From a virus: DNA of 64,000 bases. The stretch is taken from IMG/VR virus record IMGVR_UViG_3300042290_000544; one strand, given 5' to 3'. A model generated the notes under the pieces. It did no database searches, had not been told where the DNA came from, and saw nothing but the letters and a program-made list of their open reading frames with translations. Shown here piece after piece: positions 32 to 11,669 of the stretch (the stretch's first letter is position 1; every line of letters begins with the position of its first letter). The translations under genes were made by a program, and so were the position numbers.

Positions 32-107
32 TGGTGGACCAGACAGGGATCGAACCTGCGACCGTCTGCTTGCAAAGCAGCCTCTCTACCAACTGAGATA
101 CTAGCCC
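32..107 (-). tRNA. trnA: tRNA-Ala(TGC)
   Basis: Cloverleaf GGGCTAG...CTGGTCC-A-CCA, anticodon loop TT-TGC-AA. Confidence 0.95.
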
Positions 108-114
108 GAATTAA

Positions 115-780
115 TTAGAACTTGAGGGTAACAGCCGAACGGAGACCAACCGTGGTCTTATCGAGATTGCCGTCCTGGAGGACAACAAAACCGGCTGATA
201 GGACCTTCCATGAAGCATCAAGTGAACCGCCGTAGTAGGCATTGGTGTATTTGATTTCCTTGACGGTGCGTGGGAAAACATCATTTGCGTCGGTATAACC
301 AGCAAATACTGTACCCGTGAGACCGAAGTCGCCAGCAAACTTGGCAGTTTGTGCAAACTTAGCTTCAACATTGGAGAGGTCGGATTCAACATCATAGCGT
401 CCGGTAACGGTCACTGGACCCTTACCAACGGTAACGAATGGACGGAAGTGTCCATTTGAATCCTTACCCGGACGATTCTTCATTGCATACTCGGTACCAA
501 CTTTTACGTCGGCAAGAGTTGAGACGAATGTATAACCGCCAAGGAATTTGAACTGGTAGAAATCGACAGAATCAATACCATTGAGATGGGTATCTGCCGA
601 TGCTCCGACATTGAAACTGCCGATTGAGTAGTCGACTGCGGTAACAGCCGAACCCTTCGTATCAGTGACTTTGCCGAAGTCAATTCCTTTTTCTTGGTAT
701 CCAACCGAAACCGTGCCGCCAGCAAAGGCAGACGCAACAGCAAGAACCGAGATGAGTGTGAGTTTGATTAGTTTATTCAT
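115..780 (-). CDS. Outer-membrane beta-barrel protein (porin-like) with signal peptide
   Basis: Signal peptide ending AFA, alternating beta-strand pattern, C-terminal ...TLKF; TATAAATA directly upstream. Confidence 0.75.
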   Translation of the reverse strand: MNKLIKLTLISVLAVASAFAGGTVSVGYQEKGIDFGKVTDTKGSAVTAVDYSIGSFNVGASADTHLNGIDSVDFYQFKFLGGYTFVSTLADVKVGTEYAMKNRPGKDSNGHFRPFVTVGKGPVTVTGRYDVESDLSNVEAKFAQTAKFAGDFGLTGTVFAGYTDANDVFPRTVKEIKYTNAYYGGSLDASWKVLSAGFVVLQDGNLDKTTVGLRSAVTLKF

Positions 781-787
781 ACGTTAT

Positions 788-795
788 TATTTATA
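788..795 (-). promoter_or_regulatory. T4-type late promoter TATAAATA
   Basis: Exact gp55 consensus just upstream of the beta-barrel ATG. Confidence 0.7.
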
Positions 796-809
796 TTTCC
801 TATCCAAAG

Positions 810-904
810 TGGACCGCGTGTAGGGCTCGAACCTACATCTTCAGTTTCGTTCAGGGTGTACTTGACCTGTAACACTGAAATCTTATCCTTTAGACGAACG
901 CGGT
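810..904 (-). ncRNA. tRNA-like RNA with ~21-nt insertion in the anticodon loop (Arg-TCG-like if removed)
   Basis: Acceptor ACCGCGT/ACGCGGT+CCA, D arm, T arm GTAGG-TTCGAGC-CCTAC; stem TCAGT/ACTGA encloses 28 nt. Confidence 0.75.
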
Positions 905-1077
905 TTATGCTTTACTTTGCCGTATTCCATAGCCTCATATTCGATCAATAATAGATCACATCCGATTCGCTACTTAGCCGATGGACTTTATTTAAAGACC
1001 GCGGATACGCATAATATCCGCGTGAGGTTCAGTACCTGGAATCTTTTGAGAATGACTGTAAAAGAACTATGATAGAA

Positions 1078-1110
1078 CTATATCTCAACGCCGTCAAAAG
1101 TAAACAACAA
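1078..1110 (-). promoter_or_regulatory. T4-type early promoter
   Basis: GTTTAC-N17-TATAGT followed by a boxA-like GTTCTTTTA. Confidence 0.65.
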
Positions 1111-1113
1111 AGT

Positions 1114-1350
1114 TCACTTTTTCTGCAATTCAATAAGTCTATCTAAAATGTAAAGAGCCATTTGAAAGTTTCCACAGTCAATGGCCGCAATTAGTTCTTT
1201 TTTCAAATTCCACGCCTTTTCAGCATCGGTCCACGCATCCATGCTATATGCAAGAGAGTTTGGCGTCAATGGAGAGTTTCTCGCATACGCATTGGCAACC
1301 GTCTTCATGGACGGATTCATTGCCATTGGTTGTATCGGTGCTATCTCCAT
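1114..1350 (-). CDS. Hypothetical protein (78 aa)
   Basis: ORF between tRNAs; AATAAATA upstream; contains a TVANAY motif like those in the putative internal proteins. Confidence 0.55.
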   Translation of the reverse strand: MEIAPIQPMAMNPSMKTVANAYARNSPLTPNSLAYSMDAWTDAEKAWNLKKELIAAIDCGNFQMALYILDRLIELQKK

Positions 1351-1382
1351 CTATCTATTTATTATTTTGTAACATTTAGAAG

Positions 1383-1459
1383 TGGTGCTCATTGTAGGAC
1401 TCGAACCTACGACCCTCTCGGTGTAAGCGAGATGCTCTAACCAACTGAGCTAAACGAGC
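1383..1459 (-). tRNA. trnV: tRNA-Val(TAC)
   Basis: Cloverleaf, loop CT-TAC-AC, CCA end. Confidence 0.95.
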
Positions 1460-1463
1460 AAAA

Positions 1464-1541
1464 TGGTTCACTATGGAACTGGAAGCCGTGTTCCTCCTTT
1501 TTGCCGGCATGGCAAACTGCTCTCCGTTGAGCTATTAGTGA
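1464..1541 (-). ncRNA. Degenerate tRNA-like RNA with CCA end
   Basis: TCACTA/TAGTGA acceptor + ACCA and normal D arm; abnormal anticodon loop (CATGCCG) and 10-nt T loop. Confidence 0.6.
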
Positions 1542-1544
1542 AAA

Positions 1545-1915
1545 TGGTGGACCTGAGGGGAGTTGAACCCCTGTGTTCAATAATTTTTCCGATAATTTTC
1601 TACAAGCTTAGTACTACTTAACTGTCGCCATGATACCGTAATACTGTATCATGATTGTTTTGGTGAGGATACACATCTTGTACACCACTTCAAGACGGTC
1701 TCGCTTTTTATGACGAGTGTAACACTTAGCGAGAATCTGTGTTATCTACTCGATCACAGTTTTTAGGCTGCGAGTGGCATTTCTTCGGCGAAACCGAAGA
1801 AATTGCTGAGGGCTTTATTAATGCCGTTTAACTTTTTACCAGTTTTTAAAAGGTATCCGGAGAACCTTGCTTGCTTACTATAAGTCTATTACTGAGTCGA
1901 ATCCAGTACAGGCCC
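1545..1915 (-). ncRNA. ssrA: tmRNA; tag (A)GINKALSNFFGFAEEMPLAA* at 1763-1825
   Basis: 5' GGGCCTG-TACTGGATTCGAC with G3:U; 3' T arm + CAGGTCCACCA; tag ORF ends in LAA. Confidence 0.93.
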
Positions 1916-1936
1916 ATAAATTTAAAAGAACGAAAT

Positions 1937-2010
1937 TGGATGCTGGGGATGGAATTGAACCATCAGCTCCGCGTTATGAGCGCGACGAGTTACCGTTACT
2001 CTACCCGGCA
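1937..2010 (-). tRNA. trnM: tRNA-Met(CAT)
   Basis: Loop CT-CAT-AA, CCA end; one acceptor mismatch. Confidence 0.85.
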
Positions 2011-2021
2011 GGAAAATGAAT

Positions 2022-2266
2022 TTGGGAGGATTAATGATTACCTCCATCGTCCTAGTGTTTTCAGTTATTCAGTCATATGGTGCCGTCGCACCTTAATAGT
2101 CCGCTTGTCATTGTATTTCATGCTTACAAGACTATACCTCTGGTTGCTTAGGTTGGCCGACCCAAGTTTTCAGCGTAGTACCTTACCTACTTACACATTG
2201 TAGAACTGAGTGATGTTCTTCACACCACCCATGCGTTAGCCCCATTAGAAAGGCTTATTCCGCCAC
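2022..2266 (-). ncRNA. Putative ~245-nt structured ncRNA of unknown family
   Basis: No credible ORF; multiple hairpins; ends in GGAGG-TAATCATTAAT-CCTCC; preceded by a boxA-like site. Confidence 0.5.
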
Positions 2267-2292
2267 AAAAATTAAAAAAGAACAAAAATTAG

Positions 2293-2427
2293 TGGGACCG
2301 TGGATTAATGCCACGCACCGGTCTGTCCCGTAACCTGCTGGTAGAACTTGTATCCAGCCAAGGCATTGGTTTAAAGAGTGACAATGCTTCCTCTCCAGGG
2401 TGTCGGGCAGTTTAAGTGCACCGACAA
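2293..2427 (-). ncRNA. Run of GC-rich hairpins (putative small RNAs)
   Basis: GTCGG..CTTAAAC..CCGAC; GCATTG..CTCTTTAAAC..CAATGC; GCTGG/CCAGC; GGGAC..GTCCC. Confidence 0.4.
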
Positions 2428-2431
2428 AATT

Positions 2432-2554
2432 TCTCTCATTCCGGCAACGTCAGCATACAGTCCCGACCAGTGCCTATTCCACTATTATCGAGATTCTACA
2501 ACTGTTGCAGACCGTGGTGACAATAGGTTCGTGAAACCAGTTGCAGAATGAGAG
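2432..2554 (-). ncRNA. Rod-shaped RNA with central bubble (~123 nt)
   Basis: CTCTCATTC-TGCAAC pairs with GTTGC-CG-GAATGAGAG; inner CCTATT/AATAGG and TCTGCAA/TTGTAGA stems. Confidence 0.55.
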
Positions 2555-2643
2555 TCCAAGGAGATCAAGCCTTGGAAAGTTTTTAGAAAGAACAAAACCG
2601 AATTGTAACGAGTGAGCCTCTATTCGTGGCTTTATATAAAAAG

Positions 2644-2817
2644 TCAAGATTTAAAGAATGCCGTTAGTAAAGTTCCGAAAAAGCAAACAACATTACCAAC
2701 AAGCAAAGAGATAGAATATTTGTTCCAGCTCCGCATAAAGCCTGGGCGGTCCACGATGACTTTCCAGAAGGTGAATAACCAACCAGCGAAGAACAACAAA
2801 GTTAATATTAGTTTCAT
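2644..2817 (-). CDS. Small two-helix membrane protein (57 aa, MKLILTLLFFAGWLFTFW...)
   Basis: Hand-translated ORF below the track cutoff; two hydrophobic segments. Confidence 0.6.
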   Translation of the reverse strand: MKLILTLLFFAGWLFTFWKVIVDRPGFMRSWNKYSISLLVGNVVCFFGTLLTAFFKS

Positions 2818-2861
2818 AAAAGTAATAGTGAAGGGAATTTATAAAGAAAGTCAAGAAAAAA

Positions 2862-2934
2862 TGTCCACGGAGTCGAACCGTTTTTCACATAATATGATTA
2901 TGGGCCACCACCTTCTAGCTAGAAAGGCTGGACA
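2862..2934 (-). ncRNA. Degenerate tRNA-like element
   Basis: TGTCCA/TGGACA closing stem, T arm ACGG-TTCGACT-CCGT, CATAA-TCATA-TTATG arm; no CCA. Confidence 0.5.
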
Positions 2935-2942
2935 AAAATGAA

Positions 2943-3040
2943 TCAAGTAGATGTTCGGTGTATTTGTCAATTTCCGCACCGTAGCCAATCAGCCCTAGAC
3001 ATATTAGGCGATTATTTTCATTAAACGGGTATCTACTTGA
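2943..3040 (-). ncRNA. End-paired structured RNA (~98 nt)
   Basis: 10-bp closing stem TCAAGTAGAT/ATCTACTTGA plus internal hairpins. Confidence 0.5.
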
Positions 3041-3047
3041 AATTGAA

Positions 3048-3114
3048 TCAGTGGTGAAGTTGCAGCAATTTATCTTCACTTTACATATACCTGCTTGGAT
3101 AGTATCCTCACTGA
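3048..3114 (-). ncRNA. End-paired structured RNA (~67 nt)
   Basis: TCAGTG/CACTGA closing stem, inner GTGAAG/CTTCAC. Confidence 0.4.
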
Positions 3115-3123
3115 AAATTAGAT

Positions 3124-3238
3124 AGAATCGTATAGGCCGTGAAGATTTCAAGAGTCTTTGGGTCTTGCCATCCGTCGCACCCTGCGAAGTCCAATTAGGC
3201 CGAAAGAGCGGCATTTTTGTAACCTCTGATACGATTCT
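3124..3238 (-). ncRNA. End-paired structured RNA (~115 nt)
   Basis: 10-bp closing stem AGAATCGTAT/ATACGATTCT; directly after a boxA-like site. Confidence 0.5.
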
Positions 3239-3243
3239 AAAAG

Positions 3244-3255
3244 TTTTTAAAGAAC
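3244..3255 (-). promoter_or_regulatory. boxA-like antitermination site GTTCTTTAAAAA (one of ~9 in the RNA island)
   Basis: Matches rrn boxA consensus GYTCTTTAA; similar sites near 1060, 1925, 2275, 2585, 3430, 3585, 3675 and 7720. Confidence 0.55.
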
Positions 3256-3342
3256 AAAAATTGGTGGACTTTATCGTTGCCCGACGACGGTGGATTTATA
3301 CCACAGGCTCCGTACTGATTACCGTTTGCCATTTTTTCAAAT

Positions 3343-3419
3343 TGGTGCCTCCTCCGAGATTCGAACTCGGAACCCACTGATTAAAAGTCAGCAGCTCTGA
3401 ACCGTTGAGCTAAGGAGGC
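3343..3419 (-). tRNA. trnK: tRNA-Lys(TTT)
   Basis: Loop CT-TTT-AA, CCA end. Confidence 0.95.
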
Positions 3420-3454
3420 GTAAATTGTAAATGAACGAAATTAATTATGGTACA

Positions 3455-3490
3455 ATCATACACATATTCATTTAAAAGTAAACAACAAAA
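3455..3490 (-). promoter_or_regulatory. T4-type early promoter
   Basis: GTTTAC-N17-TATGAT with TG extension. Confidence 0.7.
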
Positions 3491-3566
3491 TGGTGCCCCC
3501 GAGGGAATTCGAATCCCTGTATGCACCGTGAAAGGGTGATGTCCTAGGCCACTAGACGACGGGGGC
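3491..3566 (-). tRNA. trnE: tRNA-Glu(TTC)
   Basis: Loop CT-TTC-AC, CCA end. Confidence 0.95.
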
Positions 3567-3595
3567 AATAAAAATGTGTTTTAAAAGAACAAAAG

Positions 3596-3670
3596 TGGTG
3601 CCCCGAGAGGGAATCGAACCCCCATTAACCGCTTAGAAGGCGGTGGTCCTATCCGTTGAACGACCGAGGC
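3596..3670 (-). tRNA. trnR: tRNA-Arg(TCT)
   Basis: Loop CT-TCT-AA, CCA end. Confidence 0.95.
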
Positions 3671-3724: not shown

Positions 3725-3800
3725 ATCATACATCAATGTCGGTCAAAGTAAAACAAATAATGCAACTTCGACTGTGTTTAAGTTGTTGATGGTCAACAAC
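3725..3800 (-). promoter_or_regulatory. Early promoter with upstream palindrome
   Basis: TTTTAC-N17-TATGAT preceded by GTTGTTGA-CCA-TCAACAAC. Confidence 0.6.
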
Positions 3801-4307: not shown

Positions 4308-4382
4308 TGGAGCGGAAGAAGGGACTCGAACCCTCAACATCTTCGTTGGCAACGAAGTGCTCGACCATTGAGCTACTTCCGC
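4308..4382 (-). tRNA. trnG: tRNA-Gly(GCC)
   Basis: Loop TT-GCC-AA, U73, CCA. Confidence 0.95.
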
Positions 4383-4394
4383 AAATTGTTTAAG

Positions 4395-4470
4395 TGGAGC
4401 TTCCAATCAGGGTTGAACTGATGACCTCGTCCTTACCAAGAACGTGCTCTACCAGCTGAGCTATGGAAGC
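4395..4470 (-). tRNA. trnT: tRNA-Thr(GGT)
   Basis: Loop TT-GGT-AA, CCA. Confidence 0.95.
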
Positions 4471-4495
4471 GTTTGGTATATGTATACATGATAAA

Positions 4496-4572
4496 TGGTG
4501 CCTCAGGTGGGAGTCGAACCCACAAAATTTAGATTCTAAATCTAACACGTATGCCAATTCCGTCACCGAGGC
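4496..4572 (-). tRNA. trnL: tRNA-Leu(TAG), short variable loop
   Basis: Loop TT-TAG-AA, CCA. Confidence 0.9.
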
Positions 4573-4580
4573 TAAAAAAG

Positions 4581-4657
4581 TGGTGCTCGGAGAGAGATTC
4601 GAACTCTCAGCAGCTACTCCCTCAAAGTAGTGTGTTTACCAATTTCACCATCCGAGC
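4581..4657 (-). tRNA. trnL: tRNA-Leu(GAG), short variable loop
   Basis: Loop TT-GAG-GG, CCA. Confidence 0.9.
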
Positions 4658-4668
4658 AAAAAGTTATA

Positions 4669-4746
4669 TGGTACCCACGGTGGGAGTCGAACCCACAGTT
4701 GAACAGATTTTAAGTCTGTTGTGTCTACCAATTCCACCACGAGGGC
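4669..4746 (-). tRNA. trnL: tRNA-Leu(TAA), short variable loop
   Basis: Loop CT-TAA-AA, CCA. Confidence 0.9.
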
Positions 4747-4757
4747 ATAACATAAAA

Positions 4758-4831
4758 TGGCTCCCCAACTAGGGTTCGAACCTAGACTAGGTGAGTCAAA
4801 GTCACCTGTGCTACCATTACACAATCGGGGA
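4758..4831 (-). tRNA. trnQ: tRNA-Gln(TTG)
   Basis: Loop CT-TTG-AC, G73, CCA. Confidence 0.95.
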
Positions 4832-4835
4832 AAAG

Positions 4836-4912
4836 TGGTGGACCCGGTGGGATTTTAACCCACGATCTAGGGATTATGAGTCCCTTGCTTTAGGACGCTA
4901 AGCTACAAGTCC
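4836..4912 (-). tRNA. tRNA with CAT anticodon, probably Ile2 (lysidine type)
   Basis: Loop CT-CAT-AA; GGAC acceptor and body resemble Ile2; T loop TTAAAAT. Confidence 0.8.
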
Positions 4913-4919
4913 TCGAAAT

Positions 4920-4994
4920 TGGCTGGCAAAGTAGGACTCGAACCTACAACCCTCGCATTAACAGTGCGATGCTCTGCCATTGAGCTATATGCCA
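4920..4994 (-). tRNA. trnN: tRNA-Asn(GTT)
   Basis: Loop CT-GTT-AA, G73, CCA. Confidence 0.95.
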
Positions 4995-4998
4995 AAAG

Positions 4999-5076
4999 TG
5001 GTCCGAGCGGCGGGATTTGAACCCACAGTCTTCTGCTCCCAAAGCAGACGCGATAGCCAAGTTACGCTACGCTCGG
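4999..5076 (-). tRNA. trnP: tRNA-Pro(TGG)
   Basis: Loop TT-TGG-GA, CCA. Confidence 0.95.
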
Positions 5077-5083
5077 ATGAAAT

Positions 5084-5161
5084 TGGTGGTGCCGGAGGGA
5101 GTTGAACCCTCACGCTATTCCGGGTAAGAACCGGATGCCCGTCCACTGTGGCTTCAGCACC
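5084..5161 (-). tRNA. trnK: tRNA-Lys(CTT), atypical D arm
   Basis: TCCGG-TT-CTT-AC-CCGGA, CCA; A at position 8. Confidence 0.8.
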
Positions 5162-5171
5162 GAAAATAATT

Positions 5172-5255
5172 AACGTCCGACCGATGGGTTTGCACCACGA
5201 GAGGTTCCTGAGTCAACTGTACCTCTTTGCTATCGACTTTAACGTATCGGACGTT
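5172..5255 (-). ncRNA. tRNA-sized end-paired RNA with T-loop-like hairpin
   Basis: AACGTCCGA/TCGGACGTT closing stem, GAGGT/ACCTC arm, TGG-TGCAAAC-CCA. Confidence 0.55.
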
Positions 5256-5283
5256 TAATTCCGGTAATTAATCGGAATCAAAA

Positions 5284-5361
5284 TGGCGGGATGGACGGGA
5301 CTCGAACCCGCGACCTTCTGCGTGACAGGCAGACGCTCTAAACCAGCTGAGCTACCACCCC
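5284..5361 (-). tRNA. trnD: tRNA-Asp(GTC)
   Basis: Loop CT-GTC-AC, G73, CCA. Confidence 0.95.
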
Positions 5362-5507
5362 TAAAGTTTCACACAGCCATTATTGTCATTGATATAAATC
5401 GAGAGGACTACTGTGTATGTTAAATTATTTGAATAGATGTAGCTTTGCTTTATATGACTACACTCCAGCGAGTTTCTTATTTACGCATAAGCTCCAACAC
5501 GTTTAAT

Positions 5508-5828
5508 GTTTCCCAATAAACGTACTGTTATGAACTCAGAGGCTTTTCGTTACTTCCATGTTTTTCCGCTGACGGTTAGACCCCGTGCTCGTACCGAAGA
5601 TGGAAACAATCTTCTACATTCCGAGCTGCTATTCAAAATTGGATCCTTCTGCCATACAAGTCTTCCAGAACATTTCCAGAAGATGAATGCACTTGTATGC
5701 GTTACACTCTTAAACCCCCTAAAGGAACGCAACCTTTTACACAGGTATAAGATTGCCCAGTTTCTTAGCAACATGGAGCTTTACCTTAGCGCCGGCGAAT
5801 GTAACGGTCTGCATAAACACAGAAGAAA
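5508..5828 (-). ncRNA. Putative ~320-nt multi-domain structured RNA
   Basis: Long-range pairs CGTTAC/GTAACG and TCCATGTT/AACATGGA; inner CATACAAGT/ACTTGTATG, GCTCG/CGAGC; no credible ORF. Confidence 0.55.
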
Positions 5829-5832
5829 TTAA

Positions 5833-5899
5833 TTTGATAGTTGATTCCGTACCCAAGACTATTAAAGCTGTCCTCATTAAGGGTGTGCTAACTATCAAA
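5833..5899 (-). ncRNA. End-paired structured RNA (~67 nt)
   Basis: TTTGATAGTT/AACTATCAAA closing stem. Confidence 0.45.
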
Positions 5900-5901
5900 A
5901 T

Positions 5902-6013
5902 TGGATTGCGGGCTGGACTCGATACCAGCTGACAGCGCCAAATATCCGCGACTTAGCGGGGTCCCTTGCTGCCGTGGACTCGGAAGGCTGCGTGTCCTTC
6001 CACGCCGCCGCAA
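5902..6013 (-). ncRNA. tRNA mimic with anticodon arm replaced by a ~55-nt branched domain
   Basis: TTGCGG/CCGCAA-T-CCA, D-like arm GCGTG-GAAGGA-CACGC, T arm GCTGG-TATCGAGT-CCAGC. Confidence 0.75.
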
Positions 6014-6019
6014 ATTGAA

Positions 6020-6079
6020 TGCGATTGTGACCGCTTATCAGGTCACTACAAGCGTGGAGACTAAGATCCCTCTATCGCA
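6020..6079 (-). ncRNA. Three-way-junction small RNA (~60 nt)
   Basis: TGCGAT/ATCGCA closing stem; GTGACC-TGATAAGC-GGTCAC hairpin. Confidence 0.45.
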
Positions 6080-6082
6080 AAT

Positions 6083-6157
6083 TGGCACGGACGGAGGGAA
6101 TCGCACCCTCATAAGGCAGTTTTGGAGACTGCTGCACTACTAATGTACCACGTCCGT
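6083..6157 (-). tRNA. trnW: tRNA-Trp(CCA)
   Basis: Loop CT-CCA-AA, G73, CCA. Confidence 0.9.
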
Positions 6158-6166
6158 AAAAATAAA

Positions 6167-6244
6167 TGGGGCGATCAACGGGGCTTGAACCCGTAACCCC
6201 GAAAATCACAATCTCGTGCTCTGGCCAATTGAGCTATGATCGCC
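6167..6244 (-). tRNA. trnH: tRNA-His(GTG)
   Basis: Loop TT-GTG-AT, encoded G-1:C73, CCA. Confidence 0.93.
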
Positions 6245-6249
6245 GTAAA

Positions 6250-6326
6250 TGGAGCGCCAGACAGGACTCGAACCTGCATGTAACTGTTTTGCAAACAGAA
6301 GTTTAGCCTTTCAACAACACTGGCGC
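6250..6326 (-). tRNA. trnC: tRNA-Cys(GCA)
   Basis: Loop TT-GCA-AA, U73, CCA; weak D stem. Confidence 0.85.
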
Positions 6327-6332
6327 CTAAAA

Positions 6333-6408
6333 TGGTAGTAGCGGTGGGAATTGAACCCACATAAAAGAGCTTATGAAACTCTTGCCTTGACCAATCGACC
6401 TCGCTACT
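6333..6408 (-). tRNA. trnM: tRNA-Met(CAT)
   Basis: Loop TT-CAT-AA, CCA. Confidence 0.85.
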
Positions 6409-6417
6409 GTAAATTAA

Positions 6418-6528
6418 TTATTCGGTCGGAACTTCAATCGAAGGTCTTATCGACCCGCGCGGCTCACTAGGCCGTCCTACGTCGTTAAGTGTGTACGACA
6501 ACACGGACTTTTACCGTTAACCGAATAA
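6418..6528 (-). ncRNA. End-paired multibranch RNA (~111 nt)
   Basis: TTATTCGGT/ACCGAATAA closing stem; GTCGT/ACGAC, CGGC/GCCG, GGTC/GACC hairpins. Confidence 0.55.
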
Positions 6529-6530
6529 AT

Positions 6531-6632
6531 TTTTGCTAAGATAAAAAATTAGTTACTTCTGTAATTATCCGTTAATCGCTACCCTGATGCGGTAGAGTTT
6601 TCACTGACGCCTTACCGTCCCGATATGCAAAA
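6531..6632 (-). ncRNA. Possible structured RNA (~100 nt)
   Basis: TTTTGC/GCAAAA ends, CTACC/GGTAG hairpin; non-coding spacer between tRNAs. Confidence 0.3.
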
Positions 6633-6634
6633 AA

Positions 6635-6710
6635 TGGTGGGAGCTTCTGGTAACGATCCAGATTCTTGCCGTCTTCAGCGGCACGTGAGCACCTGCTTCA
6701 CCAAACTCCC
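6635..6710 (-). tRNA. trnF: tRNA-Phe(GAA), atypical T loop
   Basis: TGCCG-CT-GAA-GA-CGGCA, CCA; T loop ATCGTTA. Confidence 0.85.
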
Positions 6711-6719
6711 GTAAATGAA

Positions 6720-6804
6720 TTTGTCGTCTCACATGGAGATAAGTTTTTCCTGTTTGAGATTAAAACTACTTGCGGCCTATCAGTCCGCGTTTTTCGTTGA
6801 CAAA
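6720..6804 (-). ncRNA. Cloverleaf-like RNA lacking tRNA consensus
   Basis: TTTGTC/GACAAA closing stem with three hairpins (GCGG/CCGC, AGTTTT/AAAACT, TCTC/GAGA). Confidence 0.45.
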
Positions 6805-6806
6805 AG

Positions 6807-6882
6807 TGGTAGACCCGGAAGGATTCGAACCTTCAATACAACGTTCGTAGCGTTGCGTGATAATCCGTTTCACTACGGGTCT
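6807..6882 (-). tRNA. trnR: tRNA-Arg(ACG)
   Basis: Loop CT-ACG-AA, CCA. Confidence 0.93.
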
Positions 6883-6889
6883 ATAAAAA

Positions 6890-6986
6890 TGAGTAGTACC
6901 GATTGTTCCGAGCACGGTTACCTGTTGTTCAACATACTGAATGATAACACCGACTCCTGTTTTACGAACAACTGGATTTCTACTCA
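6890..6986 (-). ncRNA. End-paired structured RNA (~97 nt)
   Basis: TGAGTAG/CTACTCA closing stem; TTGTTC/GAACAA inner stem. Confidence 0.5.
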
Positions 6987-6989
6987 AAA

Positions 6990-7075
6990 TGGTGGGCACG
7001 CTTGGACTCGAACCAAGGGTTATCCGAAGAGGGGACATTTACAGTGTCCTGCAATAGCCGCTATGCGACGCGCCC
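6990..7075 (-). tRNA. trnY: tRNA-Tyr(GTA)
   Basis: Loop CT-GTA-AA, long variable arm, CCA. Confidence 0.95.
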
Positions 7076-7081
7076 GAAAAA

Positions 7082-7157
7082 TGGAGCGGTAGACAGGGAT
7101 CGAACCTGCGACATCAAGTTTGGAAAACTCGCTCTCTACCAACTGAGATACTACCGC
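7082..7157 (-). tRNA. trnG: tRNA-Gly(TCC)
   Basis: Loop TT-TCC-AA, U73, CCA. Confidence 0.95.
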
Positions 7158-7162
7158 AAAAA

Positions 7163-7239
7163 TGGTGGTCCAGGTCGGATTCGAACCAACGACCCCCGCC
7201 TTATCAAGACGATGCTCTAACCAACTGAGCTACTAGACC
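7163..7239 (-). tRNA. trnI: tRNA-Ile(GAT)
   Basis: Loop TT-GAT-AA, CCA. Confidence 0.95.
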
Positions 7240-7244
7240 GAAAA

Positions 7245-7334
7245 TGGCGGAAATAGAAGGATTCGAACCTTCGGGGCTTTTGAGGACCCGAGACTTTAGC
7301 AAAGTCTTGCCTTAAACCACTCGGCCATATTTCC
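7245..7334 (-). tRNA. trnS: tRNA-Ser(GCT)
   Basis: Loop TT-GCT-AA, long variable arm, CCA. Confidence 0.95.
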
Positions 7335-7341
7335 TAAAATT

Positions 7342-7428
7342 AGGAAGGGGTGGGATTCGAACCCACGGTCGTTTTTAGGCGACTCAAGTTTTCAAGACTA
7401 GCGCCTTAAACCACTCAGCCACCCTTCC
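7342..7428 (-). tRNA. trnS: tRNA-Ser(TGA), CCA not encoded
   Basis: Loop CT-TGA-AA, long variable arm. Confidence 0.92.
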
Positions 7429-7437
7429 GTAAAATAA

Positions 7438-7509
7438 CAGTAGTTACATTGGGTTGTAACCTTCCCCAGACTCAACAGGTTTGGAGTTCTTCTGTGGAAG
7501 AACTTACTG
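7438..7509 (-). ncRNA. Cloverleaf RNA without tRNA consensus bases
   Basis: CAGTA/TACTG; AGTTCTTC-CACA-GAAGAACT; CCAAAC-CTGTTGA-GTCTGG; GTTACA-ACCCAA-TGTAAC. Confidence 0.55.
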
Positions 7510-7513
7510 AAAA

Positions 7514-7588
7514 TGGAGCCCCCGATGGGATTTGAACCCGCAACCGCTTGTTTACAAAACAAGTGCTCTACCATTGAGCTACAAGGGC
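7514..7588 (-). tRNA. trnT: tRNA-Thr(TGT)
   Basis: Loop TT-TGT-AA, CCA. Confidence 0.95.
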
Positions 7589-7597
7589 AAACTAACA

Positions 7598-7662
7598 TCC
7601 CACCATGCACCTAGAAGCATTGCTGCTTTCACGGATGAACCCGACATTCAGTGCAGGTAGGA
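7598..7662 (-). ncRNA. Three-way-junction small RNA (~65 nt)
   Basis: TCCTACC-TGCAC/GTGCA-T-GGTGGGA stem; AAGCA-GCAA-TGCTT GNRA hairpin. Confidence 0.5.
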
Positions 7663-7821
7663 AAAATTGCCCGGCTGTTATTTAAAGACGTCCGGGGCTC
7701 GTCTGTTTTTATTTGAAAAAAGAACTAATTTTACCCCTCTCAGCCTTTGCTGGTTTGGATACCCTTTGTCGGTCGTTTGGACTCCTTAAAGCCGGAGTCT
7801 GGCAGTGAAATTGAAAGTGAT

Positions 7822-7854
7822 AAAAAAACCTCTGAGCTTTATGGCCCAGAGGTT
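7822..7854 (-). terminator. Intrinsic terminator of the tRNA-array attenuator
   Basis: AACCTCTGGGC-CATAAA-GCTCAGAGG followed by a T7 run. Confidence 0.85.
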
Positions 7855-7897
7855 AAAGATAATTTCGATTTTAGATCGACCTTATTTTTAACCCCTG
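7847..7897 (-). promoter_or_regulatory. Antiterminator overlapping the leader stop codon and the terminator 5' arm
   Basis: CAGGGGTTAAAAATAA (7882-7897) pairs with TTATCTTTAACCTCTG (7847-7862) at 15 of 16 positions, one G:U. Confidence 0.8.
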
Positions 7898-7980
7898 TAA
7901 CCTGTTCCGCGTACGGACCAGAACAAGCCACAGCTATGTGGATATTGTTCTGTATTTGATTTAATCTGTACTGAAAGCAT
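7888..7980 (-). CDS. Leader peptide MLSVQIKSNTEQYPHSCGLFWSVRGTGYRG (30 aa)
   Basis: Hand-translated; lies between promoter and terminator; 18 amino acids and 26 distinct codons. Confidence 0.75.
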   Translation of the reverse strand: MLSVQIKSNTEQYPHSCGLFWSVRGTGYRG

Positions 7981-7998
7981 TTGAAGTGTTTGTTGATT

Positions 7999-8045
7999 TA
8001 TTTATAAGACAATCATACCCTATTTCCATCAAAAGTAAACAACAA
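7999..8045 (-). promoter_or_regulatory. Tandem early (GTTTAC-N17-TATGAT) and late (TATAAATA) promoters of the tRNA array
   Basis: Both consensus elements are present upstream of the leader ATG. Confidence 0.75.
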
Positions 8046-8057
8046 AAGCACTTATTT

Positions 8058-8378
8058 TTAAAGTAATTGAAGCCATCCATTGATCGTCCAAACCTTCAAG
8101 ACGCCTTCTTCCTCATCATGCCACACCGCCCCGACGATCACATTGGGTGTAACTACAGACGATACCACAGTTAGCTCCGTAGGTTTATCAAGATATGGAT
8201 TGCTCATTGCCGGTGACAACAACCCCGTCATGGTCCGGGGTATCGCAATCTTTCGTACATCGTATGGACGATCCAGATCTTTATAATACGGATACGATTG
8301 AGCACGATAAGAAACCTTAAATTCTGCCGGCGGTGGCTTTGGAAGATGCTTGGCTAGATTGTCAATTAACGAACTCAT
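8058..8378 (-). CDS. Hypothetical protein
   Basis: ORF coupled (ATGA overlap) to the HNH gene. Confidence 0.6.
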   Translation of the reverse strand: MSSLIDNLAKHLPKPPPAEFKVSYRAQSYPYYKDLDRPYDVRKIAIPRTMTGLLSPAMSNPYLDKPTELTVVSSVVTPNVIVGAVWHDEEEGVLKVWTINGWLQLL

Positions 8379-9091
8379 TGTAGATAAAGATATGGCTTCC
8401 ATTCCTCGCGGATACCCATATCCTCGGGAATTTGAACACCGATTCGGATACGGTTCTTTGGAACCACTTCCTTGCCATTGATGTCGAAGTATGGAAAAAT
8501 GTTGTCCTTGGCAGCATTACAGTCGCGGCAGGCAAGAACAAGGTTGAACCCGTCATTGGTACCACCCTTCGACTTGGGATGCACGTGATCCTTGGTGGCA
8601 ACGCAGAAAGGTATCTTTTTGAGGCAGTACTGACAGGTGCCCTTATAGATGCTGTAAAGACTCCGAAGTGAGGTTTGCTGACCACGACGAACAGTATGTC
8701 CGAAGTGAGTAGTGCAGACGACGATGGTCGGAATTGCCCATTGCTTTTCTTCACCGCTGATACGGTCGGGAGCCGAACGTAAACAGGGCTGATTAGAAAA
8801 TAGTTCTATGGTGTTCTTCGACCAAGAATAGCCGTCATTGTCTTCACGACCGTCCCATGGAATTGTGTTACCACTGGCGTCAATACCGTGAGCCCTACCA
8901 TTCATCATATGACGCATGCACGCACGCGCAGTAAAGAAGGCATAGGCTTGGTACGAACCGTCAAGCACCAAGGTGGTCCGTGCGGTTGCATCAACGGGCG
9001 TCAATACATTAACCTGTAATTGATTTAACAACTGAAGAGAAGCCTTTTCGTGGGACATTGTATTTGCGAGCGTTAGAGTAGGATTCACCAT
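8375..9091 (-). CDS. HNH endonuclease (McrA-like); start uncertain
   Basis: TLVLD..Y N-terminal motif; CQYC...DHVHPKSKGG...NLVLACRDCN. Confidence 0.85.
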   Translation of the reverse strand: MVNPTLTLANTMSHEKASLQLLNQLQVNVLTPVDATARTTLVLDGSYQAYAFFTARACMRHMMNGRAHGIDASGNTIPWDGREDNDGYSWSKNTIELFSNQPCLRSAPDRISGEEKQWAIPTIVVCTTHFGHTVRRGQQTSLRSLYSIYKGTCQYCLKKIPFCVATKDHVHPKSKGGTNDGFNLVLACRDCNAAKDNIFPYFDINGKEVVPKNRIRIGVQIPEDMGIREEWKPYLYLQ

Positions 9092-11060: not shown

Positions 11061-11669
11061 TTATTTTGCAGTCTTTTTTCGCTTATTTTGAAGGGCTTTC
11101 TTCCGTTTATTGAGACGGTTGACCACTTCCTCTCCACCCATCCAAATATCCTTATTGTCCAAAATTGCTTGAATTTCATCGGGATTCAAGAAATTGGAAT
11201 AGATTTCATTAAGGAGACTCTCCGACCACTTACGTTCGTGTTTAATCTGGTCGATCATCTCTCCGCCCTTACCGATTGTCCCACCGGAATAGTTGTGAAA
11301 CATAAACATTGAGTGAGCCGAGATTTCAAATTCATCTGCCATAAGAAAAACAATTGTGGCTGCCGACATACAGGCGCCTTCAACGGAGACCATTACGGGA
11401 GCCTTACACTCACGAATGACACGCATGAATTGAATTGCCGACCAGAGGTCGCCGCCGCAGGAGTTGATGTAAATCTTGATGAAGTCGTTCGCGGGACAGT
11501 GCCGCATCTGGTTGAACCATTCGGTGTATTTCGAGGCTTCTTCGATTTCACCCACAAGATAATACTCATGTAAATGTGCAATGGCTTTATCAGTAAAAGA
11601 AGTGGTTTGCTTCTTTTCAACATTTAGCATATCGAGCAATGGATTACCAAGTTTAGGTTCATTCATCAT
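11061..11669 (-). CDS. clpP: ClpP-family protease
   Basis: IYINSCGG, GACMSAAT (Ser), MFHNYS (His), KDIWM (Asp). Confidence 0.85.
   Translation of the reverse strand: MMNEPKLGNPLLDMLNVEKKQTTSFTDKAIAHLHEYYLVGEIEEASKYTEWFNQMRHCPANDFIKIYINSCGGDLWSAIQFMRVIRECKAPVMVSVEGACMSAATIVFLMADEFEISAHSMFMFHNYSGGTIGKGGEMIDQIKHERKWSESLLNEIYSNFLNPDEIQAILDNKDIWMGGEEVVNRLNKRKKALQNKRKKTAK

Follow-up and report, generated by a model that had tools for sequence, protein, structure and literature searches.

A candidate ribosome-operated attenuator with an amino-acid-diverse leader ORF precedes the tRNA array of an uncultured T4-like phage

The tRNA array and the region that precedes it

The window, by which we mean the whole stretch of 64,000 nucleotides analysed (IMG/VR record IMGVR_UViG_3300042290_000544), is from an uncultured T4-like phage, with genes for PhoH, a ClpP-like protease (11061-11669), exonucleases and a T4-type DNA polymerase as T4-like marks. 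Since the closest cultured DNA polymerases, from the cyanophage-like T4 group, are only ~50% identical, there is no cultured model phage, and a search of annotated phages by DNA returned no match to the window. On the minus strand, between 7588 and 32, ARAGORN found 29 tRNA genes and a tmRNA, and the total was counted as 30 tRNAs plus the tmRNA by including a long tRNA-like match at 904-812 (minus strand; 41.6 bits in Rfam) that ARAGORN missed. The first block of 23 tRNA genes is without an internal consensus promoter of either phage type. Further promoter-like sites are found within the array at 3752, 3483, 1105 and 795, those at 3483 and 1105 being of the same sigma70/T4-early type as the promoter upstream of the leader (Table 1), and therefore the leader described below would be the sole control for the first 23 tRNAs only.

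The phage tmRNA (1545-1915, minus strand) encodes a tag ending in PLAA, and just 5' of tRNA-Met and the tmRNA lies a sequence that matches the manA RNA family weakly (2015-2287, minus strand; 22 bits against the curated 55). On its upstream side the array is adjoined by a gene for an HNH-family protein (8375-9091, minus strand) with a long conserved N-terminal part. This gene is found in the same place throughout the phage group, down to ~45% identity, a constancy that appears unlike a mobile homing nuclease, and the protein is possibly linked to the function of the tRNA array.

Table 1. Features of the tRNA array and its leader region in the window, in the direction of transcription.
Feature	Position	Strand	Remark
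Sigma70/T4-early-type promoter, GTTTAC-N17-TATGAT	8012-8040	-	predicted start ~8005; kept in relatives
T4-late-type promoter TATAAATA	7999-8006	-	sequence match
Leader ORF, 30 codons	7888-7980	-	no Shine-Dalgarno site
In-ORF hairpin, 8-bp outer and 5-bp inner stem	7919-7952	-	7952-7945 pairs 8/8 with 7926-7919
Antiterminator, 7897-7882 with 7862-7847	7847-7897	-	last codons and stop against overlap with terminator 5' arm
Intrinsic terminator, 11-pair stem 7854-7827 and U tract to 7822	7822-7854	-	from sequence
Conserved structured RNA, first element 3' of terminator	7721-7806	-	also where attenuator is absent
Small H-type pseudoknot, conserved, A-rich linker	7669-7703	-	just before first tRNA
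Three-way-junction RNA directly 5' of tRNA-Thr	7598-7662	-	some relatives only
Array block 1: 23 tRNA genes, Thr(UGU) to Gly(GCC)	4308-7588	-	ARAGORN
Remaining array: Arg-UCU, Glu, Lys-UUU, Met, tmRNA, Val, Ala	32-3670	-	own promoter-like sites

Read along the minus strand towards the array, promoters come first, followed by a 30-codon ORF with an internal hairpin, an antiterminator that includes the stop codon, and a terminator overlapping it. The individual parts had been put forward in the initial annotation and were reproduced here: both promoters were found, the hairpin within the ORF forms all eight of its pairs, and the end of the ORF pairs at 15 of 16 positions (one A.C mismatch, one G.U) with a segment overlapping the 5' arm of the terminator. 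Recounting the ORF likewise gave 18 amino acids (Ala and Asp absent), 26 distinct codons and 17 different residues in the 19 positions of codons 6-24, a stretch which is the best of 12 windows within the ORF. The leader ORF resembles most genes of the window in its lack of a Shine-Dalgarno site, which only six of the 41 long ORFs have. The leader folds well below dinucleotide shuffles (z = -5.9), its minimum-energy fold is the antiterminator form, and the hairpin within the ORF is a candidate pause or synchronising hairpin for RNA polymerase. Rfam returned no match for the leader (E up to 5), the classical leader families, T-box and riboswitches included. A T-box or metabolite riboswitch was rejected, there being no conserved aptamer and no specifier or T-box.

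The terminator had been described as lying upstream of the first tRNA, which holds; it is not directly upstream, but separated from tRNA-Thr by ~235 nt containing three further conserved RNA elements, none of which has a match in Rfam. The first (7806-7721) has two to three covarying stems joined by invariant linker words and heads the array in most relatives. In the pseudoknot, the linker resembles the late promoter core with one mismatch (7686-7679) and could be either a processing signal or an internal promoter that bypasses the attenuator. The third element is loosely hammerhead-like with the canonical core missing, and comes and goes among relatives; a 51-nt part of it also matches an unrelated longer contig from an RNA run.

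Conservation and predicted switching among relatives

Related loci were gathered via a pair of adjacent genes and an RNA word from the downstream region, and were searched for a terminator overlapped by an upstream hairpin, with reading frames ignored. Among the 46 non-identical loci in which a tRNA array accompanies the adjacent HNH-family gene, the switch precedes 38 arrays (36 at the threshold and two just below it). The eight arrays from which the module is absent are scattered on the tree, which means that it is dispensable. In most of these eight loci the promoter directly precedes the downstream RNA, and one of the phages is a near-twin of a module carrier. In a tree of the adjacent gene, three pairs of neighbours (L085/L128, L111/L230 and L265/L212) differ in that one has the complete leader-terminator cassette and the other cleanly lacks it, as judged from sequence a sign of repeated loss (or gain) of the module. 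The exact leader word had no match in viral contigs, and the terminator pattern revealed no new attenuator in viral contigs beyond this phage group. The antiterminator pattern matched 11 hairpins in bacterial genomes, none with a leader ORF or an overlapping terminator, so that this one narrow pattern provides no evidence for a host origin.

The position of the ORF upstream of the arrays, conservation of which had been suggested as a check, proved to be constant. In each of the 26 switches examined in detail there is a 21-35-codon ORF, which in one case begins with UUG, and the distance from its stop to the terminator arm is 25-36 nt. A TAAATA or TAAGTA core precedes the leader start by 5-18 nt in 25 of the 26. 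In 19 divergent leaders the two remaining frames contain 16 and 41 stops, and few of the ~10 chance hairpin matches away from arrays have such an ORF. In one relative (L214:2974-3054) the frame is shifted by a small deletion close to the leader's end, and its ORF nevertheless terminates within the same arm of the antiterminator. It could be argued that the ORF is incidental and that the locus encodes a constitutively terminated small RNA or a switch controlled by a protein or ligand, since the leader is so strongly structured and the array is rich in structured RNAs other than tRNAs. The open frame and the fixed stop-terminator distance in all 26 of these switches, the regular distance between the promoter core and the start, the frameshifted relative and the lack of a conserved aptamer, binding sequence or Rfam match all count against this, and we consider it very improbable.

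Stem covariation had been a further suggested check and was borne out for the terminator, where 99.6% of cells are paired in 24 sequences and two-sided (compensatory) changes occur at six of ten pairs. For the antiterminator, which is found in every lineage with differing sequences, the outcome is partial: its 34 two-sided cells are reached in none of 500 shuffles, but the alignment there is poor (71% paired) and its number of pairs with change, limited by that alignment, is reached in 127 of 500. The in-ORF hairpin is general, with a folding z that averages -3.1 over the 26 leaders (mononucleotide shuffles). The leader sequence upstream of the hairpins is not conserved. The first tRNA downstream of the terminator is Thr, Val, Tyr, Phe or Pro depending on the lineage, and in one lineage tRNA-Thr is only 21 nt away; this means that the tRNAs, rather than the intervening RNA, are the common target.

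The leader peptides themselves are mostly unalignable (mean pairwise z 0.24, with 9 of 171 pairs significant), and the position of Trp ranges from 4 to 26. Near-identical phages differ by many amino-acid changes in the leader, and single residues such as His, Glu and Lys are freely lost. Arrest peptides can be short and an in-frame Trp and Pro are near universal in these leaders, which would be in keeping with the peptide itself being the product, as a small protein or a nascent-chain arrest peptide. This is nevertheless extremely unlikely given that neither the order nor the position of residues is conserved and that near-identical phages differ so much.

Switching was modelled by equilibrium folding with the ribosome footprint imposed as unpaired bases. 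With the stop codon in the A site, the predicted probability of the terminator is 0.88-1.0 in 26 of 26 leaders. For the window, the model gives 0.00 when no ribosome is present; stalls at codons up to 25 mostly keep the value low, with an increase at codons 7-12, and from codon 26 it exceeds 0.5. The predicted switch is clear in the window and most lineages; four lineages do not switch at equilibrium, and in these the co-transcriptional order of folding may be relevant. Of the contigs assembled from RNA runs, one extends from 8009 through the terminator to 7624 and another from 7932 to 7824, with no cover of 8038-8365. These fit a promoter start, read-through and termination at the U tract, at most as a weak hint, and were given little weight since contig ends have other causes, such as breaks at variants.

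Amino-acid diversity and codon weighting of the leaders

Comparison of the window ORF with random 30-codon windows, suggested at the outset, gave only a marginal result (p = 0.04 for proteome windows, 0.07 for nucleotide shuffles and 0.08-0.09 for structure-preserving and local shuffles). The diversity is significant across relatives, not from the window leader alone. When 19 divergent leaders are pooled, the distinct residues sum to 318, despite the divergence of the peptides. Proteome windows gave 273.5, nucleotide shuffles 281, draws from the pooled composition of the leaders 273, structure-preserving shuffles 282.5 and local shuffles 282.6 (z 5.6-7.1 for these five nulls). N-termini of phage genes gave 275, other short ORFs 266, and all five alternative frames of the 19 leaders fell below 318. 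The excess remains when the window leader is left out (z 5.4), in 14 mutually unrelated leaders (z 5.4), without Trp (z 4.0) and without Ser, Thr, Gln and Asn (z 3.9); without Trp, Pro and Gln together z falls to 2.3. Another three leaders, identified afterwards, contain 18, 15 and 19 amino acids. Pro and Gln occur in 19 of 19 leaders and Trp in 18 of 19, against ~7 expected, and most residue counts are under-dispersed, that is, there is about one of each. Shared ancestry may contribute to these even counts, but the order of residues is not conserved.

These controls bear on the reading that the same attenuator is indifferent to codons and would report ribosome availability, initiation or elongation speed, the diversity being a by-product of RNA structure and drift. 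Translation shut-off, the stringent response and ribosome-targeting toxins are candidate inputs, and uORF attenuators of such geometry do respond to general stalling as well (whiB7, PMC10274678; toiL, PMC12121999). Read-through is also predicted for the window without translation, and the window leader by itself is within chance (p 0.04-0.09). However, the structure-preserving, local, alternative-frame and neutral-ORF controls are ~35-50 residues below the observed sum, and Trp is found far more often than the 7 leaders expected, which makes such a codon-indifferent attenuator quite unlikely.

The term "pan-codon", used in the initial annotation, is supported insofar as the pooled amino-acid diversity is above every null, but coverage is incomplete and the effect is one of amino acids. 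His reaches only 4 of the 19 leaders where 11.7 would be expected, Leu 11 against an expected 17.3, and Asp and Cys also 11 each; four leaders have only 14 amino acids, and Ala, lacking in the window leader, makes up 5% over the leaders. In the leaders of the 19 lineages, both His and Leu codons are under-represented against shuffles. Given the peptide, synonymous codons show only a slight excess of diversity (p 0.01-0.02). The diversity shows no clear concentration within the predicted sensing region, the value inside it being 271 against 266.6, and in four leaders the only Trp lies at or beyond the edge of that region. The claim that codons for different isoacceptors mirror the array had to be given up: in 14 of 26 leaders an amino acid is missing although the retrieved part of their own array includes its tRNA. 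The window leader, for example, is without Asp although tRNA-Asp sits in the first array block.

Some codons are weighted. Of all leader codons, 7.7% are ACA and 5.2% UCA, compared with 1.4% for either codon in phage genes and ~2.1% in N-termini, and the over-use relative to local shuffles has a z of 6.7 for ACA, 5.5 for UCA and 4.1 for UGG. ACA occurs 40 times in frame compared with 4 and 20 times out of frame. The excess of ACA and UCA may account for the deficit of His, as CAN then falls in the +1 frame. The tRNA that usually comes first in the arrays is Thr(UGU), and Ser(UGA) is often second. The same attenuator might therefore be tuned mainly to a few tRNAs, namely Thr(UGU) through ACA and Ser(UGA) through UCA, plus those for Trp, Pro and Gln, the rest of the leader being filler. 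The in-frame over-use of these codons and the usual place of the two tRNAs at the head of the array are in line with such tuning, as are the whiB7 leader, likewise diverse yet tuned to Ala (PMC10274678), and the finding that tRNA-Thr(UGU) is one of the main targets of the PARIS nuclease AriB (PMC12409363). We nevertheless regard it as unlikely. AAA, which corresponds to the other main target of AriB, is under-used in the leaders, the window leader has just two ACA and two UCA codons with no codon runs, most residues are evenly represented, and the excess of diversity withstands removal of Ser, Thr, Gln and Asn, or of Trp. Since close relatives gain and lose single residues, coverage has gaps and ACA and UCA are over-used, selection looks soft, apparently for about one of most residues with extra Thr and Ser.

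Proposed mechanism and relation to known regulators

At the level of sequence, the window and its relatives establish a promoter, a short ORF, an in-ORF hairpin, an antiterminator containing the stop codon, an overlapping terminator, fixed spacing and excess amino-acid diversity. It is very likely that these form a ribosome-read attenuator of one sensing type or another, whether broad in spectrum, tuned to a few tRNAs or indifferent to codons. We propose, with a probability of roughly two in three, that the module is a ribosome-operated transcription attenuator whose broad-spectrum leader would give transcription access to the tRNA genes once any sampled residue is decoded very slowly, with extra weight on Thr and Ser. 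The original reading of the locus as an attenuator is thus retained in its core, through the conserved terminator/antiterminator switch heading 38 of 46 arrays and the pooled diversity, but without complete coverage or mirroring of the array.

According to this proposal, the leader ORF would be translated from an AU-rich start without a Shine-Dalgarno site while RNA polymerase pauses at the in-ORF hairpin. With charged tRNAs plentiful, the ribosome would reach the last codons, the antiterminator would melt and transcription would end at 7822. If any of the sampled aminoacyl-tRNAs were short, or translation were blocked, the ribosome would lag and transcription would enter the tRNA genes. Shortage could come from starvation, as in dilute water, from exhaustion late in infection or from cleavage by a host tRNase, and the tRNA products would relieve it, giving negative feedback. 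Since there is about one codon per amino acid, the leader would be a detector of severe shortage; theory predicts a low sensitivity where regulatory codons make up only a minor part of the control region (PMC1183508), which would suit the detection of severe loss. The repeated ACA and UCA codons would place extra weight on tRNA-Thr(UGU) and tRNA-Ser(UGA), the two genes with which the array usually opens.

The proposed reasons for phage tRNA arrays are codon compensation, replacement of degraded host tRNAs and escape from tRNA-cutting defences (PMC10264068, PMC11555353, PMC12409363). A more tentative possibility is that the leader acts as a counter-defence alarm, having come under selection to include one or more codons for most of the tRNAs that host immunity can cut or inactivate, so that a stall caused by tRNA damage would bring in replacement tRNAs. 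If true, this would be an inducible, sensor-coupled anti-defence module made from RNA and a 30-codon ORF alone.

The module shares with the leader-peptide attenuator class a conserved short ORF and a terminator with a mutually exclusive antiterminator. In enterobacteria, the pheM leader precedes pheST. The enterobacterial leaders trpL, hisL, thrL, leuL, pheL, ilvGMEDA and ilvBN have a pause hairpin within the ORF, an overlapping antiterminator and a race between ribosome and polymerase (modelled in PMC1183508), to which the candidate pause hairpin, the antiterminator and the proposed race of the phage leaders correspond. They differ in having codon runs for one to three amino acids and biosynthesis or synthetase targets, whereas in the phage leaders most residues occur about once and the targets are structured RNAs and tRNA genes. 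Furthermore, the phage stop codon lies inside the 5' arm of the antiterminator, and without translation the window is predicted to give read-through and not super-attenuation. A classical amino-acid attenuator of the trp, his, thr, leu, phe or ilv kind was rejected on the lack of codon runs, the 18 amino acids in 30 codons and the moderate ACA/UCA excess.

The closest design is that of whiB7/wblC in mycobacteria and other Actinobacteria, in which efficient translation of a uORF leads to termination and a stall to the antiterminator, and in which the peptide is variable, covers most amino acids and over-weights one residue type, Ala there as opposed to Thr/Ser in the phage leaders. The M. smegmatis whiB7 uORF contains 19 of 20 amino acids (no Cys), with Ala over-weighted; knock-downs of tRNAs and synthetases induce it, and its single Trp codon confers Trp sensing (PMC10274678). 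The initial annotation knew of no description of its design; with a leader sensing nearly all amino acids published for whiB7 (PMC10274678), the sensing design is not new. Unlike whiB7, the phage leader has 21-35 codons and controls not a transcription factor but tRNA genes, a direct feedback on the sensed molecule. It is also not upstream of whiB7, not enriched in Ala and not on an actinobacterial chromosome, and the likeness is one of design, for which we do not claim homology.

Two further systems can be compared. The Anabaena trn operon of 26 tRNA genes is induced under translational stress via the repressor TrcR (PMC10272220), and is alike in that a large accessory tRNA array is turned on when translation is in trouble; it is plasmid-borne and controlled at initiation by a DNA-binding repressor, whereas a ribosome-read RNA switch is proposed for the phage. 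In the antibiotic-sensing uORFs toiL, vmlR, msrD and bmrB, stalling in a short uORF likewise permits downstream expression, but the targets are resistance or toxin-antitoxin protein genes, and their abstracts mention no selection for amino-acid coverage. In our literature search, outside which most subscription papers fell, no attenuator of the leader-peptide kind turned up either on a phage or upstream of tRNA genes, and tRNA genes are not named among the targets in a genome-wide survey of attenuators. The module therefore appears to be a known type of regulator in a new place, a phage and its tRNA genes, where it is conserved and statistically non-random.

At ~200 nt the cassette could be tested in a reporter without phage culture, and the sister phages L085 and L128, which differ in its presence, provide a natural comparison. 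If the proposal is true, the leader codons would spell out directly, and in a testable way, what the phage monitors, and ribosome-mediated attenuation would extend to viruses and to tRNA genes. If expression of the array is conditional on slow decoding, the phage tRNAs would be an on-demand repair kit.
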